Assembly: GCA_900767955.1 (NCBI GenBank)
Contig: CAAGBC010000049.1
Location: 14,992-78,991 of the forward strand
Origin: Spirochaetia bacterium
Lineage (GTDB): Bacteria; Spirochaetota; Spirochaetia; Treponematales; Treponemataceae
Reading direction: 5' to 3'
DNA length: 64,000 nucleotides
The notes beneath the pieces are model-generated. The model was not told where the DNA came from and did no database searches. It worked only from the letters and a program-made list of their open reading frames with translations. This document shows positions 1 through 45,704 of the stretch, in pieces. A program made the position numbers and the translations under genes. Position 1 is the stretch's first letter, and each line of letters opens with the position of its first letter.

Positions 1-116
1 GGTAATTCTTGTTAGACAGCTTTTTTTTTACATAAAACGCTTATTGAAAAAAAATTGATGTTATGATAAGTTAAAAACGTAAAAAAACTTGACAAAGGAA
101 TTTTTGACCTTTATGC

Positions 117-154
<38 letters not shown>

Positions 155-204
155 TAATAGTAGAATTATTTCTTTTTTTGAAAAATTTAAATATATAAAC
201 AATA

Positions 205-254
205 GGCGTTGTGAAATTTGCAAAAAATATTGCAAGTTGTACAACGCCTTTTTT
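205..254 (+). terminator. Hairpin plus T-tract, putative intrinsic terminator or attenuator
   Basis: ggcgttgt (205-212) pairs with acaacgcc (241-248), with a partial inner stem, followed by tttttt (249-254). Confidence 0.45.
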
Positions 255-372
255 GTTGCTTTGGCTACGTTTGTCAATTGAATGAGTAGGCGATAGTCGA
301 TATAACAATGGATTTAGTTTTTCTTAATCAAACTAAAAATAAACAATGATTTTAAAACGAGGAGGAAAAATC

Positions 373-2931
373 ATGAAAAAACTAAAATGTCTTGCCGCGT
401 TTATAATTGTGGCAACATTATTTGGTGGAGTCTTGGGATGTAAACAAGAACCAGAAATCAAGTATGTTGAAGTAGAAAAGCAACCAGATGGCGTTGCTCC
501 TGCTGATGTAACAAATTTAGTTGTTACAAACAAAGACGCAAGTGTTTTACTAACTTGGACAGACGCCACAGACGAAGACATTTACGGCTACGAAGTAAGT
601 TGGAAAACATCTACTGAAAACAGAGCTGCCGCTGCAATGGAATCAAATTCTATAATGGTAGCCCCAGGTGCAAAAGGTTGTTACATTAGCAACTTAACAA
701 ATGGAACAGAATATGCTTTTACAGTAAAATCTGTTGATACAAGCGGAAACAAAAGTGCAGGTGTTACAAAAACAATTACACCAAGCATTATAGAAAAATC
801 ACCACTTGCAATAACTCTTACAGCAAATACAACATCAAAAACAAATCAAAATGTTGTAATTTCTGTAAATGCAACAACAGACAATGCAAGTGAAGTAAAG
901 AAAATTGCTTACAAAGAAGGCACTTTGGCAGATATAGAAAGTGTACTTGCAGGAACAAATATTACAGAAACAAAACAAATTACAGCAACAGAAAATACTA
1001 CATTTACCGTTGCAGTAACAGACACAGCAGGACGCCGTGAACTTGCTTTTGTTACAGTGAATAATATTGATAAAACAGCTCCATCACAAGTTGCAAATGT
1101 CATTCCAATTTATTCAAGAAATAATAACGCAATTAAATTGTCTTGGACAAATCCAGCAGACGAAGATTTTGCAGGAACAGAAATTGTTTATGGCAAAACA
1201 GATAGCGAAGAAACAATAACACTAACTTTTGATAAAAATACAACATCAGCAACAATAAAAAACATTGCTGACGATGATAGTGAATACACAATTGCAATTA
1301 AAACAAAAGATGACCTTGGAAACCTTAGCGAAGCAAAAACAGTTACAGTAGTTGCAGCCACAGGTGCAAAAATTACAAGTGTAAATCTTGATAGAACTCA
1401 CTTAGATTCTATTATGGCAAACCGCAATATTAGCGTAACAATTACCGGAAGTAATTTTGACCTTTTATCAAGTCTTTTGGTACAAGTAACAGATGGCTCA
1501 AAAGCAGAAACCCCAGTAACAGCAACAATCAATAAAGAAACAAATACAGCAACAGCAACAGTTATAGCCCCTGTGCCAGCAAGTCCTACAAACAATGGAA
1601 CAACCTACACTGTAAAAGTAATTGTAGATAGCACAACACCAGCAGAAACAACAGCAGAGTTTGTTGTAAGTTTACCAGCTGATGTAAGATATATTACTTT
1701 AGCACAAACACAAATACCAGTAGGAACAGAAGATAATGTAACAGCTACAATAAAAGGATACAACTTTGATATTCGTGGTGTAACAAAAGTAAAATTACTA
1801 GATTCAAATGGAGATGAAGTAATAGAAAGTACAGTTGAAGTTCCTCTTGAAACAAAAACAAGTGAAACAGAATTTACAGTAGATATTCCTTTACCAACAA
1901 CAGAAGGTGTTTATACAGTTGCAGTATTCTTTGATGATGTAAAAGATACAACTACAACAACACTACAAGTTTACGGAACTCCTATTATTTCTGAAGTTAC
2001 AATTCCTGTTGCAGGAACAAGTTATGGAGGAAATGTATTACCAGTAACAATTAATGGTAAAAATTTTACAGCCCCAGGTGTTACAGCAAGTGGATTTACA
2101 AGCACAGGAGCAACTTTAACTAATGTAACAATTGTAAGTGATACAAAAGTAACAGCAGAAGTAGCTTGCCCTTATGCAGCAGGAACAACAAATGTAACAG
2201 TAAGTTATGGAGATTCTAATACAACAACAACATTAAAAGTAATAGAATCAGTAGCTTCATCTTATGCAGTAGGAGATATTATCTTAACAAATGGCTCAAA
2301 AGTGTCTGTAAATGATGTTGAAACTTATTCACCTGATAACGCAAATAAACCAATAGGTGTAGTTGCAATGATTACTGATGTTTACGGAGTTCCAAACCCA
2401 AAAGTAATAGGCTTACAAAAGTCTGCAAGTGAATTAATGTGGGCACCAGATGATACAACAGGATATAACACAAAGTTTACTAACATAGTTTGTACACCAA
2501 GCAAAAATGGTACAGGTGCAGCATTAACAGCAACTTTTACAGGCGACACAGATGGAAGTGATAATTGGGAAGAAATTTGTGCTGTAGACCCAGAAGGAAC
2601 AGCTGATGCAGCAACAAATTACCCAGCTTTTAATTTTGCAAATACTTATGGAACAACAGCAGGATTAACAGGCACAGATTATGAAAACGGTTGGTATGTA
2701 CCAAGTCTTGCAGAATTATGTGAAGTATACAAAAACAAAGAAGTAATACAAATATCATTAACAAAAGCGAATGGATTTAAAATTGGCACAAGTGCTTACT
2801 GGAGCAGTTCCCAGTTCGCTTCCTACAATGGTGACGCGTACCGAGTGAGTTTCAACGCCGGCTACGTGAGCGGCTTCAGCAAGTACTACAATGTTAATGT
2901 GTTTGTTCTGCAGGCTTTAACAGCAGAGTAA
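373..2931 (+). CDS. tvpA: DGR target: surface lipoprotein (TvpA-like) with tandem Ig/FN3-like repeats and a C-terminal CLec/FGE-type variable domain
   Basis: RBS ggagga 361-366, then ATG at 373 (the ORF track begins 346). Signal peptide MKKLKCLAAFIIVATLFGGVLGC has a lipobox. Thr/Val-rich repeated modules follow. The C-terminal ~40 codons form the VR matched by the TR at 4107-4228. The layout matches the T. denticola TvpA DGR target. Confidence 0.8.
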   Translation: MKKLKCLAAFIIVATLFGGVLGCKQEPEIKYVEVEKQPDGVAPADVTNLVVTNKDASVLLTWTDATDEDIYGYEVSWKTSTENRAAAAMESNSIMVAPGAKGCYISNLTNGTEYAFTVKSVDTSGNKSAGVTKTITPSIIEKSPLAITLTANTTSKTNQNVVISVNATTDNASEVKKIAYKEGTLADIESVLAGTNITETKQITATENTTFTVAVTDTAGRRELAFVTVNNIDKTAPSQVANVIPIYSRNNNAIKLSWTNPADEDFAGTEIVYGKTDSEETITLTFDKNTTSATIKNIADDDSEYTIAIKTKDDLGNLSEAKTVTVVAATGAKITSVNLDRTHLDSIMANRNISVTITGSNFDLLSSLLVQVTDGSKAETPVTATINKETNTATATVIAPVPASPTNNGTTYTVKVIVDSTTPAETTAEFVVSLPADVRYITLAQTQIPVGTEDNVTATIKGYNFDIRGVTKVKLLDSNGDEVIESTVEVPLETKTSETEFTVDIPLPTTEGVYTVAVFFDDVKDTTTTTLQVYGTPIISEVTIPVAGTSYGGNVLPVTINGKNFTAPGVTASGFTSTGATLTNVTIVSDTKVTAEVACPYAAGTTNVTVSYGDSNTTTTLKVIESVASSYAVGDIILTNGSKVSVNDVETYSPDNANKPIGVVAMITDVYGVPNPKVIGLQKSASELMWAPDDTTGYNTKFTNIVCTPSKNGTGAALTATFTGDTDGSDNWEEICAVDPEGTADAATNYPAFNFANTYGTTAGLTGTDYENGWYVPSLAELCEVYKNKEVIQISLTKANGFKIGTSAYWSSSQFASYNGDAYRVSFNAGYVSGFSKYYNVNVFVLQALTAE
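2801..2922 (+). repeat. DGR variable region (VR) within the 3' end of the target gene
   Basis: About 122 bp aligns base-for-base with TR 4107-4228. Roughly 23 of 25 differences fall at TR adenines (A to G, T or C), plus 2 non-A differences. The 3' end gtgtttgttctgcagg is identical in both. Confidence 0.85.
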
Positions 2932-2967
2932 GCGTAGCTTAGTCTGCATTAACTATTAAACTATTTG

Positions 2968-3031
2968 TTCATAAAGTAGCGTACGCTACTTTATGAACTC
3001 GGTGGCGTACGCCACCGAAAAAATTTTTTTT
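2968..3031 (+). promoter_or_regulatory. Two tandem perfect hairpins downstream of VR, then A/T tract: candidate DGR target-recognition hairpin/cruciform and transcription stop
   Basis: ttcataaagtagcg/cgctactttatgaa (2968-2997) and ggtggcg/cgccacc (3001-3016) are perfect palindromes sharing the core gcgtacgc. gaaaaaa and T8 follow (3017-3031). Confidence 0.6.
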
Positions 3032-3045
3032 ATGAAAAGAGGATT

Positions 3046-3552
3046 ATGGGTATGAGTAATATTATTGAATTTGAAGATATTGTATCAAAACCTGTAGGTG
3101 TAACTTATGAAAGAGTTCAAACTCTTGGTATATATTGTTTTCAAGCAGAAAAAAAAGAAAGAAATGCTGCATATTTTTTGCCAAGATTATCTTGGAATAA
3201 AAATATTGATTATCTAAAATCAATTTATTCTGATATAGAAAACGAATCAAATTTACAAGGCAAAGGAATTTACACATCTGTTTGGAATATAGAAAAACAT
3301 TATGATAATATTTCATTAAAAAATGCAGATAAACGACTAGAACATGATATGCATACACTAAGTGCTTTTAAGGCATGGGTAAAAGCAGATTCAAATTTAA
3401 GTGAAGATACCGAACTTCAAATATATGTCTTAGCTAGCGAAAGAGTTTTTCCAAAGTATAAATTTACAGAGTTACAAAATACATCTGCTACAATTTATTA
3501 TAATTGGGATGAAATCTTAGAAAAAACACAAATAGAAAGTAAAGGCAACTAA
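3046..3552 (+). CDS. Hypothetical protein (168 aa) encoded between the DGR target and avd; possible extra DGR accessory gene
   Basis: ORF with RBS aaaagagga upstream. No motif recognised. Its stop overlaps the start of the avd-like ORF. Confidence 0.5.
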   Translation: MGMSNIIEFEDIVSKPVGVTYERVQTLGIYCFQAEKKERNAAYFLPRLSWNKNIDYLKSIYSDIENESNLQGKGIYTSVWNIEKHYDNISLKNADKRLEHDMHTLSAFKAWVKADSNLSEDTELQIYVLASERVFPKYKFTELQNTSATIYYNWDEILEKTQIESKGN

Positions 3553-3553
3553 T

Positions 3554-3928
3554 TTGTCCCTTTACTACGATTTACCAGTATTCAAAGATGTCTACAAAAT
3601 GACACTACGCATATTTGAACTTACATCAAATTTTAGTCGTGAATATAAATTTACCTTAGGTCAAGATTTAAAAAGAGATTGTATTTTACTTGTGCGTAGT
3701 ATTTACAGAGCAAATAAATGCAAAGATAAGGTTTTGTATCTTGAACAATTTTTAGACAGCTTTGAAGTTGTAAAATTAGAAATACGGTTATGTAAAGATT
3801 TAAAATTAATTTCTGTAAAACAACAAGCAGAACTTGTTTTACTTACAGAAAATATAGGAAAACAAATTACTGGGTGGCGTAATGCCCAAGATAAAATTGT
3901 GAATAATCGGGCAATGCCTGATAAATAA
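3554..3928 (+). CDS. avd: Avd-like accessory variability determinant (small basic helical protein)
   Basis: 124 aa, Lys/Arg-rich with predicted helical character. Position between target gene and TR matches canonical DGR order. Start is TTG at 3554 or ATG at 3599. Confidence 0.6.
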   Translation: MSLYYDLPVFKDVYKMTLRIFELTSNFSREYKFTLGQDLKRDCILLVRSIYRANKCKDKVLYLEQFLDSFEVVKLEIRLCKDLKLISVKQQAELVLLTENIGKQITGWRNAQDKIVNNRAMPDK

Positions 3929-3947
3929 ATGCCAGAATTTATATTGC
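3907..3947 (+). repeat. 41-bp direct repeat copy 1 (tcgggcaatgcctgataaataaatgccagaatttatattgc), overlapping the avd stop
   Basis: Exact 41/41 match to 5431-5471. Encodes the C-terminal residues of Avd in one frame. Confidence 0.9.
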
Positions 3948-4106
3948 TACGGTGATATAAAGAGAGCGTGCTTTTGTGTAAAAGCGGCAAAGTCTCCTGC
4001 ATCAAAAATAAACCTTAAACCAAGGAATAGGCAGAAATTGCTTTTTGTAGGGATATAGTTTTTATAAAGAATTCTCTTTGTAAAGTATAAGATTTTGCGA
4101 AAATTG

Positions 4107-4228
4107 AAAGCAGTTCCCAGAGAGCTTCCAACAATAATAACGCGTACCAAGTGAATTTCAACGACGGCAACGTGAACAACAACAACAAGAACAACAATAA
4201 TAATGTGTTTGTTCTGCAGGATTTTACA
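4107..4228 (+). repeat. DGR template repeat (TR)
   Basis: Non-coding, adenine-rich copy of the VR (runs of aac/aat). All but about 2 mismatches to VR lie at TR adenines. Flanked by inverted repeats at 3970-3985 and 4222-4236. Confidence 0.85.
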
Positions 4229-4238
4229 CAAAGCTTTT

Positions 4239-4274
4239 GCCACATAAATTGATATTTGTGTGGCGTTTTTTTTT
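4239..4274 (+). terminator. Intrinsic-terminator-like hairpin immediately 3' of TR and 5 nt before the RT start
   Basis: gccacataaat / atttgtgtggc form an 11-bp stem with one G-U pair and loop tgat, followed by T9 (4266-4274). Confidence 0.55.
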
Positions 4275-4279
4275 AGATT

Positions 4280-5446
4280 ATGGATTTAACATTAGAAGAA
4301 GTTTTTGAAGCCTATTATGAATGTCGAAAAACTAAAAGATATTCAAATGGGGCTTTACAATTTGAACTTAATTTAGAAGAAAATTTAATTCAATTATATT
4401 CTCAATTAATAACTCAAGAATGGCAACCTGGAAAATCAACTTGTTTTATAGTAACAAGACCAGTTCGTCGTGAAATTTTTGCAGCTCCATTTAGAGACCG
4501 AATTGTTCATCATATTTTAATTCGCAGACTTAATTCTACATTTGAAAAATATTTTATTTATGATAGTTATGCATGTCGCAAGCAAAAAGGAACTCATGCC
4601 GCAATAAAAAGGGTTGAGCATTTTATAAAAAGTCAATTAAACAATGGAAAATCAAATGTCTATGTCTTAAAACTTGATATAAAAGGTTTTTTTATGAATA
4701 TTGATAAAAATCTTTTATGGCAAAAGTTGGAAAAATTTATAGATATAAATTACAAAACTGATTCAGTAGATTTTGAAAAATATTTATGTAAACAAATCAT
4801 TTTTAACGACCCAACAAAAAATTGTATGATTCGAAGTCCTTTGTATGAATGGAAGGAACTGCCAAAAGATAAAAGTTTGTTTACAACAAAAGAAAATTGC
4901 GGACTTCCAATTGGAAATTTAACAAGCCAAGTTTTTGCAAACTTTTTTCTATCAGAATTTGATCATTTTATAAAACATACGTTAAAAGTAAAATGTTATG
5001 TGCGTTATGTTGATGATTGTGTTATTATTCATAAAAATAAAGATTTTCTAAAATATATTATAAAAAAGGCTAAAAATTTTTTAGAACAAAAATTAAACCT
5101 TACACTTCATCCAAAAAAAATATATTTGCAATTAGCTCAAAATGGAGTAGCGTTTTTGGGAACTTTTATAAAACCAAATTACACAGTTTGTAGTCATCGT
5201 GTAAAAAATAATTTTGTAGAATCTCTTAAGAAATATGCAACTCTTGCAAATAATCATAAATTATCAAAAGAAGAAAAACAAAATTGTCTTTCTAGCGTAA
5301 ATTCTTATCTTGGAATTATGAGTCATTACAAAACATATAATTTTAGAAAAAAACAAATTTTACGTTATTTTGAAAAATGGCTTAAGAAAAGTTATTGTAT
5401 TCCAGAAAATTGCAAAAAAATAATGAATAAATCGGGCAATGCCTGA
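4280..5446 (+). CDS. DGR reverse transcriptase
   Basis: RT motifs present, including the DGR-specific LPIGNLTSQVFANFF (I/LGxxxSQ in place of the group II QGxxxSP) and YVRYVDDCVII (YxDD). Sits directly downstream of the TR. Confidence 0.9.
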   Translation: MDLTLEEVFEAYYECRKTKRYSNGALQFELNLEENLIQLYSQLITQEWQPGKSTCFIVTRPVRREIFAAPFRDRIVHHILIRRLNSTFEKYFIYDSYACRKQKGTHAAIKRVEHFIKSQLNNGKSNVYVLKLDIKGFFMNIDKNLLWQKLEKFIDINYKTDSVDFEKYLCKQIIFNDPTKNCMIRSPLYEWKELPKDKSLFTTKENCGLPIGNLTSQVFANFFLSEFDHFIKHTLKVKCYVRYVDDCVIIHKNKDFLKYIIKKAKNFLEQKLNLTLHPKKIYLQLAQNGVAFLGTFIKPNYTVCSHRVKNNFVESLKKYATLANNHKLSKEEKQNCLSSVNSYLGIMSHYKTYNFRKKQILRYFEKWLKKSYCIPENCKKIMNKSGNA

Positions 5447-5471
5447 TAAATAAATGCCAGAATTTATATTG
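5431..5471 (+). repeat. 41-bp direct repeat copy 2, overlapping the RT stop
   Basis: Exact match to 3907-3947. Encodes the RT C-terminus (KSGNA*) in a different frame from copy 1. Confidence 0.9.
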
Positions 5472-5643
5472 CACATGTCAGGAAATTAAAAAAAATAGTT
5501 ATTCGTTAGAAATTTTTTTTGTTTATGTGTAAACAATTCTGAATTGCACAAAGGATTGTAGCCACTTGTAAAATGGAAAACGCGTTAAGAAAAATTGTGA
5601 TTAGCAATTTTTTAGTGTTTTCTATTTTATGAAGCGCTTTGAC

Positions 5644-5676
5644 GCGGAATGGCGAAAAGCCTGGTTTTTGCGGTAG
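5644..5676 (+). promoter_or_regulatory. Conserved ~30-nt leader motif, copy 1 (gacgcggaatggcgaaaagcctggtttttgcgg)
   Basis: About 27/31 identical to 39205-39234. Both copies lie 50-110 nt upstream of plus-strand genes. Confidence 0.5.
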
Positions 5677-5699
5677 TAAAAATGTGCCCAAATTATTAA

Positions 5700-8600
5700 T
5701 TGATTGTTAAAAATTTTGTTATGATGGCTTTTTATTTTATCTTCAATTGCTTTATAAAAAATATGGTGTATAATAGAAACAATATGGATATCTCTAATAA
5801 ACTTGAAATTGCAAAAAAATTTATTGAAACATCTAAAAAAAATCTTTGCTTTATTGTAGCTGATAGTCTTGTTTCTCAATGTATTGCAGAAGATATGAAG
5901 GATTCTTACCAAATTATTGATTTGGCAGAAGATTTTACACCTTTTAAGCCTTTTTTGAATTTATTATCCAAAGGTAATCTTCCTGAAAAAAATGTTAGAG
6001 AAAAAACTTATTCCATTCAAACTGAATCTTTTGTTTCATTTTTTAAAACTGGAATGGCAGAAGAACGTTATGATATTCCAATTGATAACGAAGAATTATA
6101 TGAAATAAATCAGTATGTAAAATCAATTGTCGTACTTTTTAAAGAACTTCCTGTTAAAAATTATATTTTTACAAATGCACAAAATATTTTCTCTGATTCA
6201 TTTGCTGTAATTAAAGAATTAGAAAATCATGAATTAGCAAGTAAATTTGTTTTTTGTTTTAATGCTGATGTTACAAATCCTTCTGTTGAAGTTTTAGATT
6301 TTTTGGAAAAAAATACAGAATCAGAAAACTTTATGTATCTTCAAGCTCAGTCTACTACTGCAAATACAGCTCTTGCTTTTGAAAATGAAGAATCTGAAAA
6401 TTTATTGAATGTAAGTCAAGAATTTAAAGAAACAATGATGAATAATTTTGATTTTGTATTTTCATTGTTGCGTAATAATCGTTTGTTTATGTCGTTCAAG
6501 CAGTTGAAAATCTTGATAGCGTGGGTTTCTAAGAATTTTCCTAATATGAATTATTCTGTTTATCAAAAGCGAACCTTGCTTCATGAACTTGCAATTGATT
6601 GTTATGTATGTAAATTGGAAGACGAATCAATTCTTCATTTTAATGATATTATTGAAACTCTTCCTGATGATGATTTTGCACTTTCAGCAGCATATTATTT
6701 AGCTAGAATTTTCTATCTAAAAAAATCTGGTGAATTTGCAAAAAAATATGCTCTTCAAGTTTGGCAACAATTAAACGGAAATGAAGAAAATCCTTATTAT
6801 GCACTTTTGTCTATGTTGGAATTTCAGTTTGTAAAACGCTCCGATGCAAATATTGCAAAAGGAAAGTATATAGAAGCGTTGAAGCAGCTTGAAGCTCACG
6901 GATTTGTAAATAATTATATTGCAACAGGTTTGACTATTCCTTGGAATTTGATTAATACTCCAGATTCTAGACCTCTTATTGAAGATACAATTGATAACTG
7001 TATGCGTATGGCAAAAAAATACGGAAATAATCATTTGTATTCTACTGCTTGCCATTGGAAAGGAATTATTGCTTCTCATTACGGTGAACGCGATGTTGCA
7101 ATGAAATGGTATAACGATTGTAATAAAATACGAACAGAAATTGGAGAAATTGGTCCTCTTATGAATATTCGTAATGGCCTTTCTTATGAATCTTTGTGTC
7201 GTGCTTTATATAAAGATGCTTATGATTTAGTAAATGGAGTTATAAGCAATATTTATAATTTAAACGATTATTCCAGAATTGTAGACTGCTTAAAAAATAT
7301 AAGTTATGCACTTTTTTATGCTCGCCACTATGACATTGCTCATGAAATTTTTTCTTTGTTGTTGCATTTTCTTAGACTTTTTAATATGGAAGAGCAGGCT
7401 TATAATTCATTCTTGCCATCAAGAAGTGATATTTTAATATTGAAGACAATTATTGATTTGGATAGAAAAGATGTAATTCATGCAACTATCAATTTCAATC
7501 AAATTGAATCAACAGTAAATTCTGTTACAATGGAAGAAAAACCTTTAATTCCTTTTATTCGTGCAATTTTGTTAGCAAATGATTCTATGTTTGAAGAATC
7601 TGAAAAAGCTGTTGAATTGTGTGTTCAGGAATTTAAGAAAATTAAAAGTAATCAAACCCACAAAATATGTTTCGTTTATTTTGAATATGCAGTTTTATTA
7701 AAAAGATTAAATCAAATGGAACTTTCTCAGAAATATCTTGATTTAGGATATAATCTTGCAAAAGAAAATAATTTTGCATATTACACAAAAAATAAAGATA
7801 GCGTTTCTGTTGAAGATTATTTAAATGGTTATGAAAAATACGATGAATTAAATATTAATTTGGCTTTCCTTTTAGAAAAAGCAGAAAAGGAAAATCTATT
7901 AACTCAACTTCATAAACGAATTCACGATTACCAATTCTTGAATAAAGTAAAAACAAATAACTTAAGATCTTCTAATCTTAAGAAGTATATTGAAAACACT
8001 GTTTTGTATATTTATGAATATTGTTTTGCAGAATCTGTATTTATTGGTGAACTAACAGACGAAGGAGCAGGAACTCTTTATTCTATTAGTCGTGGAAAAT
8101 CTGTAAATATTTCTTCACAAAAGTGGAAGAAGTTGTTCAAAGAATCTACAAATAAAGAAGTTACTCAATTTGTTTATAAAGAAAAGCAACAACTGTTTTT
8201 TGGTAATATGACTCAATTTGAGTATAAGTTTGGAATTGTTATTATTCCTACTGAACAAAATCCATTTACTAACGAAAGTATTAATACTTTGAATATTGCG
8301 CTTTCTACTATTCAATCACAAATTGTTATTTATAAACAAGATGAAAATCTATTGTTCCTTTCTACAACAGATACTCTTTCATTGTTGAATAATAGACATG
8401 CTTTACAGAAACAACTTCTTGTTGAAGGTGATAGAATTCGTCGTTATGCAAAGCGTAAGTCAACAAAAATTCAAGTTTCTATTGCGTTTATGGATTTGGA
8501 CAACTTTAAATATTATAACGATACATTCGGACATAATGCTGGGGACTTGTTTATTACTTGTTTTGCAAAACTTCTTAAAAATACTTGTCGCCAAGTTGAC

Positions 8601-8939
8601 TTTATTTCACGATTTGGTGGAGATGAATTTGTTGTTGTAATGACAGACACTAATGAAACTGAATCTTGTAGAGTTTATGAACGATTAAAAGAAGCGTTGG
8701 CAAAAGAAGAATATTTTATTCCTCAGTTGCGTAATTTGTTAGGTGTAAACACTTTGGAAATTCCTTCTAATAGATATTTGGGCTTTAGTATGGGAATTTG
8801 TACAAATTATGATATTGAAGATGCTTCTGATTTGAATGCAGTATTAAAAAATGCAGACAAAGCTTTGTATCATTCTAAAGAAACTTGCAAAGGAACTTGT
8901 ACTATTTGGTCTGATATTAAAGACAAAGTTCAAAAATAA
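5700..8939 (+). CDS. Diguanylate cyclase (GGDEF domain) with a very large N-terminal, mostly helical/TPR-like region
   Basis: The C-terminus carries RFGGDEFVV and the surrounding GGDEF-domain sequence (FMDLDNFKYYND...). The start is uncertain (5700, 5721 or 5784), and a tataat at 5769-5774 may mean the true start is 5784. Confidence 0.7.
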   Translation: MIVKNFVMMAFYFIFNCFIKNMVYNRNNMDISNKLEIAKKFIETSKKNLCFIVADSLVSQCIAEDMKDSYQIIDLAEDFTPFKPFLNLLSKGNLPEKNVREKTYSIQTESFVSFFKTGMAEERYDIPIDNEELYEINQYVKSIVVLFKELPVKNYIFTNAQNIFSDSFAVIKELENHELASKFVFCFNADVTNPSVEVLDFLEKNTESENFMYLQAQSTTANTALAFENEESENLLNVSQEFKETMMNNFDFVFSLLRNNRLFMSFKQLKILIAWVSKNFPNMNYSVYQKRTLLHELAIDCYVCKLEDESILHFNDIIETLPDDDFALSAAYYLARIFYLKKSGEFAKKYALQVWQQLNGNEENPYYALLSMLEFQFVKRSDANIAKGKYIEALKQLEAHGFVNNYIATGLTIPWNLINTPDSRPLIEDTIDNCMRMAKKYGNNHLYSTACHWKGIIASHYGERDVAMKWYNDCNKIRTEIGEIGPLMNIRNGLSYESLCRALYKDAYDLVNGVISNIYNLNDYSRIVDCLKNISYALFYARHYDIAHEIFSLLLHFLRLFNMEEQAYNSFLPSRSDILILKTIIDLDRKDVIHATINFNQIESTVNSVTMEEKPLIPFIRAILLANDSMFEESEKAVELCVQEFKKIKSNQTHKICFVYFEYAVLLKRLNQMELSQKYLDLGYNLAKENNFAYYTKNKDSVSVEDYLNGYEKYDELNINLAFLLEKAEKENLLTQLHKRIHDYQFLNKVKTNNLRSSNLKKYIENTVLYIYEYCFAESVFIGELTDEGAGTLYSISRGKSVNISSQKWKKLFKESTNKEVTQFVYKEKQQLFFGNMTQFEYKFGIVIIPTEQNPFTNESINTLNIALSTIQSQIVIYKQDENLLFLSTTDTLSLLNNRHALQKQLLVEGDRIRRYAKRKSTKIQVSIAFMDLDNFKYYNDTFGHNAGDLFITCFAKLLKNTCRQVDFISRFGGDEFVVVMTDTNETESCRVYERLKEALAKEEYFIPQLRNLLGVNTLEIPSNRYLGFSMGICTNYDIEDASDLNAVLKNADKALYHSKETCKGTCTIWSDIKDKVQK

Positions 8940-8980
8940 TTCTGATTTATTTGCTGTTGTTATAATTTTTATGAAAAAAT

Positions 8981-9016
8981 AAAAAAAGAGGTTGTTCTAA
9001 GAACAACCTCTTTTTT
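8981..9016. terminator. Bidirectional intrinsic terminator between convergent GGDEF and pckG genes
   Basis: gaggttgttc-taa-gaacaacctc is a perfect 10-bp stem, with an A-run before and a T-run after. Confidence 0.75.
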
Positions 9017-45244: not shown

Positions 45245-45613
45245 GGGGATGTACAGGTTTCGACGGTTGTGGGAACCCCTGTGCTGCAGGTGAGTGTGAA
45301 GGTGCTCTGAACTGACAAAAAAATAACTGCAAAACGTAAAGAAGACGAAATGTCTGAAAACGAACAGTTCGCTCTTGCTGCGTAAGTAGCTGAGCCAGAA
45401 CTCTTGCTATGCTGTTCCGAAGAGTAGGAAGTTCTGACGCCAACCGGGACTTGGTGTATATTGTTTCTAGCCAATATATACGACATTTAGTTAGAATACG
45501 GAAGAGACGCTTGTAATGCTGCTACCTGTTCCCGACAATTACCTCGCATTACTAAACTTGTAGATGTACTTGGATTACACTTTCGGACGGGAGTTCGATT
45601 CTCCCCATCTCCA
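45245..45613 (+). ncRNA. ssrA: tmRNA (SsrA)
   Basis: 5' ggggatgtacaggtttcgacgg. 3' tRNA-like domain ggacgggagttcgattctccc with acceptor strand catctcc+a. Internal tag reading frame ends ...gaaaacgaacagttcgctcttgctgcgtaa, giving tag ...ENEQFALAA*. Confidence 0.9.
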
Positions 45614-45704
45614 AAAACTTGTCTTTGTCTGGTTATTGAAGATTTAAGACAAGTTTTTTTTTATTAACATTGAAATTACTATTTAGAAATAGTAAATTAT
45701 AATT

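Follow-up and report, generated by a model that had tools for sequence, protein, structure and literature searches.

The first 5.5 kb of the 64,000-nucleotide stretch of spirochaete DNA analysed here (contig CAAGBC010000049.1 of assembly GCA_900767955.1; this whole stretch is called the window, and all spans are given in its coordinates) carry a diversity-generating retroelement (DGR). We conclude, with a probability of roughly 0.95, that it is a complete, chromosomal, Avd-dependent DGR of an uncultured gut Treponema/Spirochaetaceae species, and that it diversifies the C-terminus of a lipoprotein. In the Bordetella system, the reverse transcriptase (RT) together with Avd reverse-transcribes the RNA of a template repeat (TR) with adenine-specific misincorporation, and the resulting cDNA replaces a variable repeat (VR). 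Between 373 and 5446 on the + strand, the window holds a target gene with its VR, an additional gene that we term orf168, avd, a non-coding TR and the RT gene, in this order; the first 5.5 kb comprise five collinear open reading frames (ORFs) on the + strand, the fifth of which is a GGDEF-domain gene from 5700.

The initial annotation, made from the letters of the window alone, had described a complete DGR of a known family with its parts in canonical order: a lipoprotein of some 850 aa with Ig/FN3-like modules and a C-terminal C-type lectin domain, a VR at the 3' end of its gene, an avd-like gene at 3554-3928, a non-coding TR and a DGR-type RT bearing (I/L)GxxxSQ and YVDD motifs. ORF, repeat and profile analyses recovered every one of these parts, at coordinates correct to within two bases (the TR starts at 4109, as against 4107), and the element is an ordinary representative of a known DGR class. 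Two features had not been spelled out, namely orf168 (3046-3552) and an exact direct repeat of 43 nt.

Adenine-specific differences between VR and TR

No direct repeat within the first 8 kb of the window is longer than that formed by the VR and TR (120 nt, 81% identity). The VR (2803-2922, +) lies in frame at the very end of the target gene, in an ORF of 861 aa in which it takes up codons 820-859 and stops 9 nt short of the stop codon, and the TR (4109-4228, +) is intergenic and non-coding. Between them there are 23 mismatched positions, 21 of which are adenines in the TR (10 A>G, 8 A>T and 3 A>C); given that 47 of the 120 TR bases are adenines, the probability of finding at least 21 of 23 mismatches on A is 2.8e-7. 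Nearly all of the A-site mismatches fall at codon positions 1 and 2. Read in the VR frame, the TR contains 17 AAY codons, and in theory it permits, across 24 codons, approximately 10^24 different proteins. When every A of the TR was written as N, the resulting pattern matched just two sites in the 64 kb, the VR and the TR themselves, and none in 100 shuffles; a second, remote VR was not found in the window with this A-degenerate pattern.

The 3' part of the VR, GTGTTTGTTCTGCAGGCTTTAACA (2899-2922), resembles the initiation of mutagenic homing (IMH) sequence of other DGRs, and reads CAGGCTTTAACA in the VR versus CAGGATTTTACA in the TR. All strains that we compared share, without exception, the VR/TR differences at 2915 and 2919, and from this pattern the two appear to mark the difference between IMH and IMH*.

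The reverse transcriptase and Avd

The RT gene (4280-5446, +) encodes a protein of 388 aa with the DGR-type motif LPIGNLTSQ at 4904-4930 (IGNLTSQ being residues 211-217) and YVDD at 5006-5017. The protein matches Pfam RVT_1 at 9e-22 and PHROG 1423 at 8e-93, and its best match in the PDB is 8ub7 (2e-28), a 328-aa chain deposited as 'Reverse transcriptase', which we take, from the chain length, to be the Bordetella phage bRT. Searches with the NCBIfam and PADLOC collections returned no DGR-RT model; the top NCBIfam match was the group II intron RT/maturase (105 bits), and PADLOC models of defence-associated RTs (DRTs) matched as well. These matches raise the alternative that the enzyme is a retron, group II intron or defence-associated RT lying beside a chance repeat. 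The NCBIfam and PADLOC matches to group II, retron and Drt models are, however, far below their cutoffs (for instance 105 bits versus 300), and among solved structures the match to 8ub7 is 20 orders of magnitude better than those to the group II intron RT (2e-8) and to retron RTs (about 1e-4 to 1e-5), with DRTs likewise at 2e-8 or weaker. The (I/L)GxxxSQ motif, an adjoining Avd and an A-specific VR/TR pair are not features of the retron, group II intron or DRT families, and Rfam detects no group II intron or retron RNA in positions 1-6000. We therefore regard a non-DGR enzyme as extremely improbable. The same Rfam search gave a single sub-threshold match, to a miRNA family, which we judged to be noise, so that a known RNA family within the locus was rejected.

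The neighbouring avd gene (3554-3928, +) encodes 124 aa with an isoelectric point (pI) of 9.3, and starts with TTG two bases past the orf168 stop codon, leaving one base between the genes. Its product matches the Pfam family bAvd (PF22296; 4e-18, 66 bits versus a cutoff of 40) and PHROG 3206, 'Avd protein of DGR' (8e-23); the match to the NCBIfam model DivGenRetAVD (NF033474; 9e-15, 55 bits) is below the cutoff of 80. Relative to the Avd of L001 (L001-L058 label the comparison loci that we retrieved), it carries a C-terminal extension of 11 aa.

Diversification in natural populations

An RT protein identical to that of the window is encoded on 15 public metagenome contigs, and eight of the ten that were listed include both the VR and the TR. 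The loci fall into two variants. Variant B, comprising the window and L024, has an 852-aa target, orf166/168 and a 124-aa Avd, and variant A (L022, L023 and L025-L028) has a target of 741-750 aa that lacks one FN3 module, no orf168 and an Avd of 137 aa; the Avd of L027, whose gene contains a run of N, was called as 140 aa. The TR is constant within each variant with the exception of one substitution in L023. Between the variants the TR alleles differ at six positions, four of them non-A (e.g. CTGCAGG versus CTCCAGG and AACAAT versus AACTAT), and each VR mirrors its own TR at these variant-specific non-A bases, which indicates that information flows from TR to VR. We observed five VR alleles on these contigs with identical RT (that shared by the window and L024; L022; L023; that shared by L025, L026 and L027; and L028), each with 16-21 mismatches to its own TR at A sites and one to three at non-A positions.

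The initial annotation had proposed that the target is a hypervariable surface protein, and had named a comparison among strains, in search of VR polymorphism confined to TR adenines, as the way to check it. For this we aligned four near-identical variant-A strains over 2326 nt, consisting of the 2226-nt target gene and 100 nt downstream. Within the 120-nt VR lie 31 of the 38 polymorphic columns, the other seven being spread over the remaining 2206 nt (Fisher P = 2e-35), and 28 of those 31 coincide with TR adenines (P = 4e-9). Polymorphism is thus about 80-fold denser in the VR than in the rest of the target gene, and the proposal is borne out by both the five alleles and the alignment. Given that this A-biased polymorphism is concentrated in the VR among strains that are otherwise near-identical, we conclude from sequence comparison that the DGR is active in the species.

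Several observations weigh against this conclusion, or against extending it to the strain at hand. Because a single VR allele is common to the window strain and L024, the comparison shows activity for the species and not ongoing activity in the window strain. The window VR has one non-A mismatch, T2816 against G4122 of the TR. This position belongs to a TR codon (4121-4123) that is AGA in the window and AAC in variant A, and mutagenesis can turn the derived AGA codon into a TGA stop. In two strains, single T>A differences occur within the otherwise constant stretch GTGTTTGTTC. Finally, we infer the RNA, its priming, the integration of cDNA and the Avd-RT interaction from outcomes in the sequence.

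Part of this could be read as a sign of decay, in that the parts of the DGR would persist while homing has been lost and the VR differences are relics. The shared allele, the derived AGA codon and the accompanying non-A mismatch fit such a reading, and related loci do decay: the avd of L039 amounts to 24 codons and the RT of L045 to its C-terminal half. We nevertheless consider a fossil element very unlikely, as all ORFs of the window locus are intact, the RT is 100% identical at the nucleotide level among strains with VRs that are 16-21 A sites apart, and the excess of polymorphism in the VR requires recent homing in the species. The VR codon opposite the AGA codon (2815-2817) is TTC, which is reachable from AAC by A changes alone, so that either the TR codon mutated after the last conversion or the conversion missed this codon. 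Of the two, we consider it probable that the AAC>AGA change in the window TR postdates the last conversion of the codon, the alternative being a partial conversion at the 5' side.

Comparing positions 1-9000 of the window with L022 reveals a mosaic, in which an RT block (4353-5752) is 100% identical, the flanks 96-99%, avd and the leader that follows it 92-94% and the target 82%; the extra FN3 module of variant B corresponds to 471-809 of the window. This distribution of divergence indicates recombination and/or diversifying selection that would be centred on the target.

Host and genomic context

Members of the RT cluster are named Treponema sp. or Spirochaetaceae metagenome-assembled genome (MAG), and the nearest GTDB representative has an RT that is 80% identical. 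The context of the locus is chromosomal, because the flanking genes are housekeeping genes (those for PEPCK, a Mur ligase, HSP20 and a GGDEF protein, and the transfer-messenger RNA (tmRNA)). A phage or plasmid origin was considered and set aside: the target and orf168 have no PHROG matches and the flanks are of the housekeeping kind. The tmRNA gene, at 45245-45616 on the + strand (Rfam, 120 bits), encodes the tag peptide AKRKEDEMSENEQFALAA and is ordinary chromosomal content.

The target lipoprotein

The target gene (373-2931, +) encodes a surface lipoprotein of 852 aa with the signal MKKLKCLAAFIIVATLFGGVLGC. Mechanically, the ORF extends from 346 and covers 861 aa; we consider the ATG at 373 to be the likely start, as it is preceded by GGAGG and agrees with the 852-aa gene call in the near-identical L024. 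The protein is composed of FN3/DUF4959 modules, the FN3 assignment resting on Pfam, of Ig-like repeats and of a C-terminal C-type lectin domain that is probably of the DUF1566/Lcl_C type. The Pfam model Lcl_C matches this last domain at 2e-4; homologues of the target carry PF07603. Structure prediction of the domain, which the initial annotation had suggested, was run with AlphaFold2 (AF2) and yielded, at a pLDDT of 95, a C-type lectin fold in which the VR (residues 181-220 of the model) makes up the last four strands. Presumably, the variable lectin domain serves varied ligand or adhesion specificity in the gut.

Non-coding elements and a proposed mechanism

Three non-coding elements accompany the repeats and may be part of the diversification machinery. 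The 180-nt leader between avd and the TR (3929-4108, +) is conserved with relatives, and in comparison with L001, the relative with 80% RT identity, its conservation equals or exceeds that of the coding regions. RNAalifold predicts a structure for the leader with 18 double-change pairs, which derive from just about three independent lineages. The leader presumably forms the 5' part of the TR RNA. Between the TR and the RT, directly before the RT start codon, lies a terminator-like hairpin (4238-4275, +) with a 12-bp stem and a 4-nt loop, followed by a run of nine T. It recurs in L001, L002, L003, L008 and L014 with shape and position kept and with a different sequence, which suggests a possible role in delimiting the TR RNA at its 3' end, or in a spacer structure, in this clade. 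Lastly, a pair of terminator-like hairpins (2967-3036, +) begins 45 nt past the VR; its palindromes, at 2967-2998 and at 2999-3018, each contain a GCGTACGC core, and A5T9 comes after them. By analogy, this pair may be the counterpart of the hairpin that follows the IMH in the Bordetella DGR.

We hypothesize that an RNA spanning the leader, the TR and the spacer hairpin would be transcribed, and that the RT and Avd would copy the TR into cDNA while misincorporating opposite template adenines, as homology to the Bordetella bRT-Avd leads us to expect. The cDNA would then replace the 3'-terminal VR of the lipoprotein gene, in a direction presumably set by the IMH, and the product would be a surface lipoprotein that displays as many as about 24 variable residues in its lectin domain.

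A 43-nt direct repeat around the TR and RT

The TR-RT module of the window is bracketed by two copies of an exact 43-nt repeat, which reaches about 55-58 nt if one indel is allowed and whose copies are spaced 1525 nt apart. Copy 1 (3905-3947, +) comprises the 3' end of avd and the start of the conserved leader before the TR, and copy 2 (5430-5472, +) supplies, in another frame, the last five codons and the stop of the RT gene. All strains of the species whose assemblies cross the repeat have it. We dismissed an assembly artefact because independent assemblies contain the repeat, among them megahit assemblies labelled k141, whose k-mer exceeds the repeat in length; Logan contigs of about 1.55 kb that end at the repeat are, we infer, the break expected of a k=31 graph.

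Could the repeat be functional, either as a recombination site for excising or switching off the TR-RT module or as a duplicated promoter? Its exactness, its recovery by several assemblers from all strains whose assembly crosses it and its position exactly around TR-RT speak in favour, and both copies hold a sigma-70-like match, CTGATA-16-TATATT. Promoter-like matches are, however, common in AT-rich DNA (41 were found versus 28 expected), and the relatives L001, L002 and L014 lack the repeat, with no such repeat of at least 35 nt in L003, on which ground it was also rejected as a conserved feature of these DGRs. Moreover, copy 1 aligns with the native post-avd sequence of L001, across a deletion of about 75 nt, and copy 2 starts at exactly the point at which the homology to the L001 RT 3' end is lost, which has the appearance of a duplication junction. 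We therefore regard a functional role as improbable, and the alignments suggest that the repeat is probably a lineage-specific scar of duplication, produced for example by tandem duplication of the avd 3' end, TR and RT followed by deletion. Some relatives (L007, L011 and L012) carry avd after the RT. Whatever their origin, flanking direct repeats could allow the TR-RT module to be lost by recombination. Such a deletion would join the left flank in avd, the repeat and ACATGTCAGG, and a circle or tandem copy would join the left flank in the RT gene, the repeat and TACGGTGAT. A scan of JGI contigs for these junctions gave zero matches of any kind and is uninformative, the species being seemingly absent from that collection.

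orf168, an additional gene between target and avd

Between the target and avd, variant B carries orf168 (3046-3552, +), which encodes 168 aa with no signal peptide. Profile searches of the protein against Pfam, NCBIfam, PADLOC, PHROGs and the PDB gave no match. An AF2 model built from a 12-sequence alignment predicts a PUA-like (ASCH/EVE/YTH) fold with a pLDDT of 81, with no sequence match to a family model. The family is tiny, consisting of 35 clusters at 50% identity across 1.84 billion representatives; 18 clusters at 90% identity, whose source names are exclusively Treponema, share 36 invariant alignment columns, and from this conservation we judge orf168 to be a real conserved protein. The homologues that we retrieved (L024, L032-L058) have 161-176 aa and are so far confined to Treponema or Treponema-like contigs. 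In distant homologues, the domain is fused to a PD-(D/E)XK-like region.

Of 12 distinct contexts, about 10 place the family directly beside a gene for a lipoprotein with an FGE-sulfatase or DUF1566 lectin domain. It lies between the target and the TR in the window, where the DGR is of the Avd type, in L049, a complete DGR of the HRDC type, and in L045, which has a TR and a truncated RT; L039 is a remnant composed of target, orf and avd. The FGE-sulfatase genes upstream of the homologues in L038, L042 and L051 encode two lectin domains each, and near-identical alleles have their differences grouped at the ends of the two domains, a distribution which suggests that each gene may carry two VRs diversified in trans by a remote DGR.

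These associations invite the idea that orf168 is a target-linked accessory factor of the DGR, a nucleic-acid 'reader' that aids or regulates homing at the end of the VR. Against it stand the variant-A strains, which lack orf168 at the locus and still diversify, and one clade of homologues (L035, L056-58) that adjoins a lipoprotein with no recognisable lectin domain. In addition, the AF2 model is moderately confident, and synteny may be inherited and not functional. An accessory role of this kind thus seems to us possible, if on the unlikely side, and we hold a DGR-related function of the family as a whole to be rather unlikely. As a tentative proposal, which we consider fairly unlikely in its full form, the family would be an unrecognised target-linked DGR accessory, namely a stand-alone PUA-like reader, whose homologue in putative PD-(D/E)XK nucleases is the C-terminal domain, that acts at the VR/IMH end during or after cDNA integration, with local or remote targets and in DGRs of either the Avd or the HRDC type.

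An accessory gene of similar length, CH1, has been described as encoding 160-169 aa with a pI of 4.7 and as occurring in avd-less DGRs only (Wu et al. 2018, PMC5758913). That orf168 is CH1 appears doubtful, as the description sets it apart: the pI of the orf168 family is 5.2-7.7, and it co-occurs with avd.

Comparison with known DGRs

The window locus shares with the Bordetella phage BPP-1 DGR (mtd-avd-TR-brt) the order of target, avd, TR and RT, the Avd accessory, a VR at the very 3' end of the target, A-specific mutagenesis and a VR domain with a C-type lectin fold; its RT is closest, among solved structures, to that which we take to be the RT of this phage (8ub7, 2e-28).

With respect to the target, the Legionella pneumophila DGR (LdtA) is similar in that it has a lipoprotein target, a VR in a lectin domain of the DUF1566/Lcl_C type, to which the window domain probably belongs, and an Avd. 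LdtA uses a twin-arginine translocation (TAT) signal; none is evident in the ordinary lipoprotein signal of the window target. The two differ further in the phylum of the host and in the N-terminal FN3/Ig architecture of the window target, and we saw no MutS-like (MSL) accessory gene at the window locus. VRs in DUF1566 domains make up category 'd'/CLec2 of Wu et al. (2018), with the Legionella DGR as its example (PMC5758913). Structurally, the window VR domain is closest to DGR-diversified type V tip pilins of Bacteroides (BovFim1C, PDB 4EPS; 10.1101/2024.11.15.621889), from which the window target differs in having lipid-anchored FN3/Ig modules and neither the N-terminal domains of a pilin nor a pilus operon. 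In L001, the closest GTDB relative (a Spirochaetaceae MAG), two tandem DUF1566 targets lie at 1600-4400, each with a VR that matches the one TR.

The one claim of the initial annotation that fails is that the locus matches the architecture of the TvpA DGR of Treponema denticola. The two share the host genus or family and a surface lipoprotein target with a C-terminal VR domain of C-type lectin fold. In T. denticola, an HRDC gene lies between the TR and the RT gene, which it overlaps, and the targets are FGE-sulfatase proteins, some of them remote (PMC4891356). In the window, by contrast, Avd is encoded upstream of the TR, the gap of 51 nt between TR and RT contains neither an ORF nor HRDC, and the VR domain is not of the FGE-sulfatase type (CLec1) and is probably of the DUF1566/Lcl_C type. 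Homology of the target to TvpA was likewise rejected, as there is no sequence match and the structural rank is low. The label 'TvpA-like' is thus best abandoned, and the wider description of a surface lipoprotein target with a C-type lectin fold holds.

A DGR that is of the T. denticola type, and unlike the window locus, was observed in complete form in a JGI metagenome contig (L049, 2030-5740). It comprises an FGE-sulfatase lipoprotein target, a 176-aa homologue of orf168, a TR within 4144-4419 (with a repeat of about 120 nt), an HRDC-like ORF that overlaps the RT gene, and the RT.

Implications

The association of orf168 with DGR targets is the one lead at this locus that could be new. If functional, orf168 would be a new accessory component tied to the target and not to the RT module, and would bear on the poorly understood integration of cDNA. 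The strains of this species provide a natural experiment, in which an identical RT is combined with two TR alleles, five VR alleles and locus variants with or without orf168. The locus adds a well-documented, naturally active case of an Avd-type DGR with a lectin lipoprotein, probably of the DUF1566 class, as its target in a gut spirochaete.

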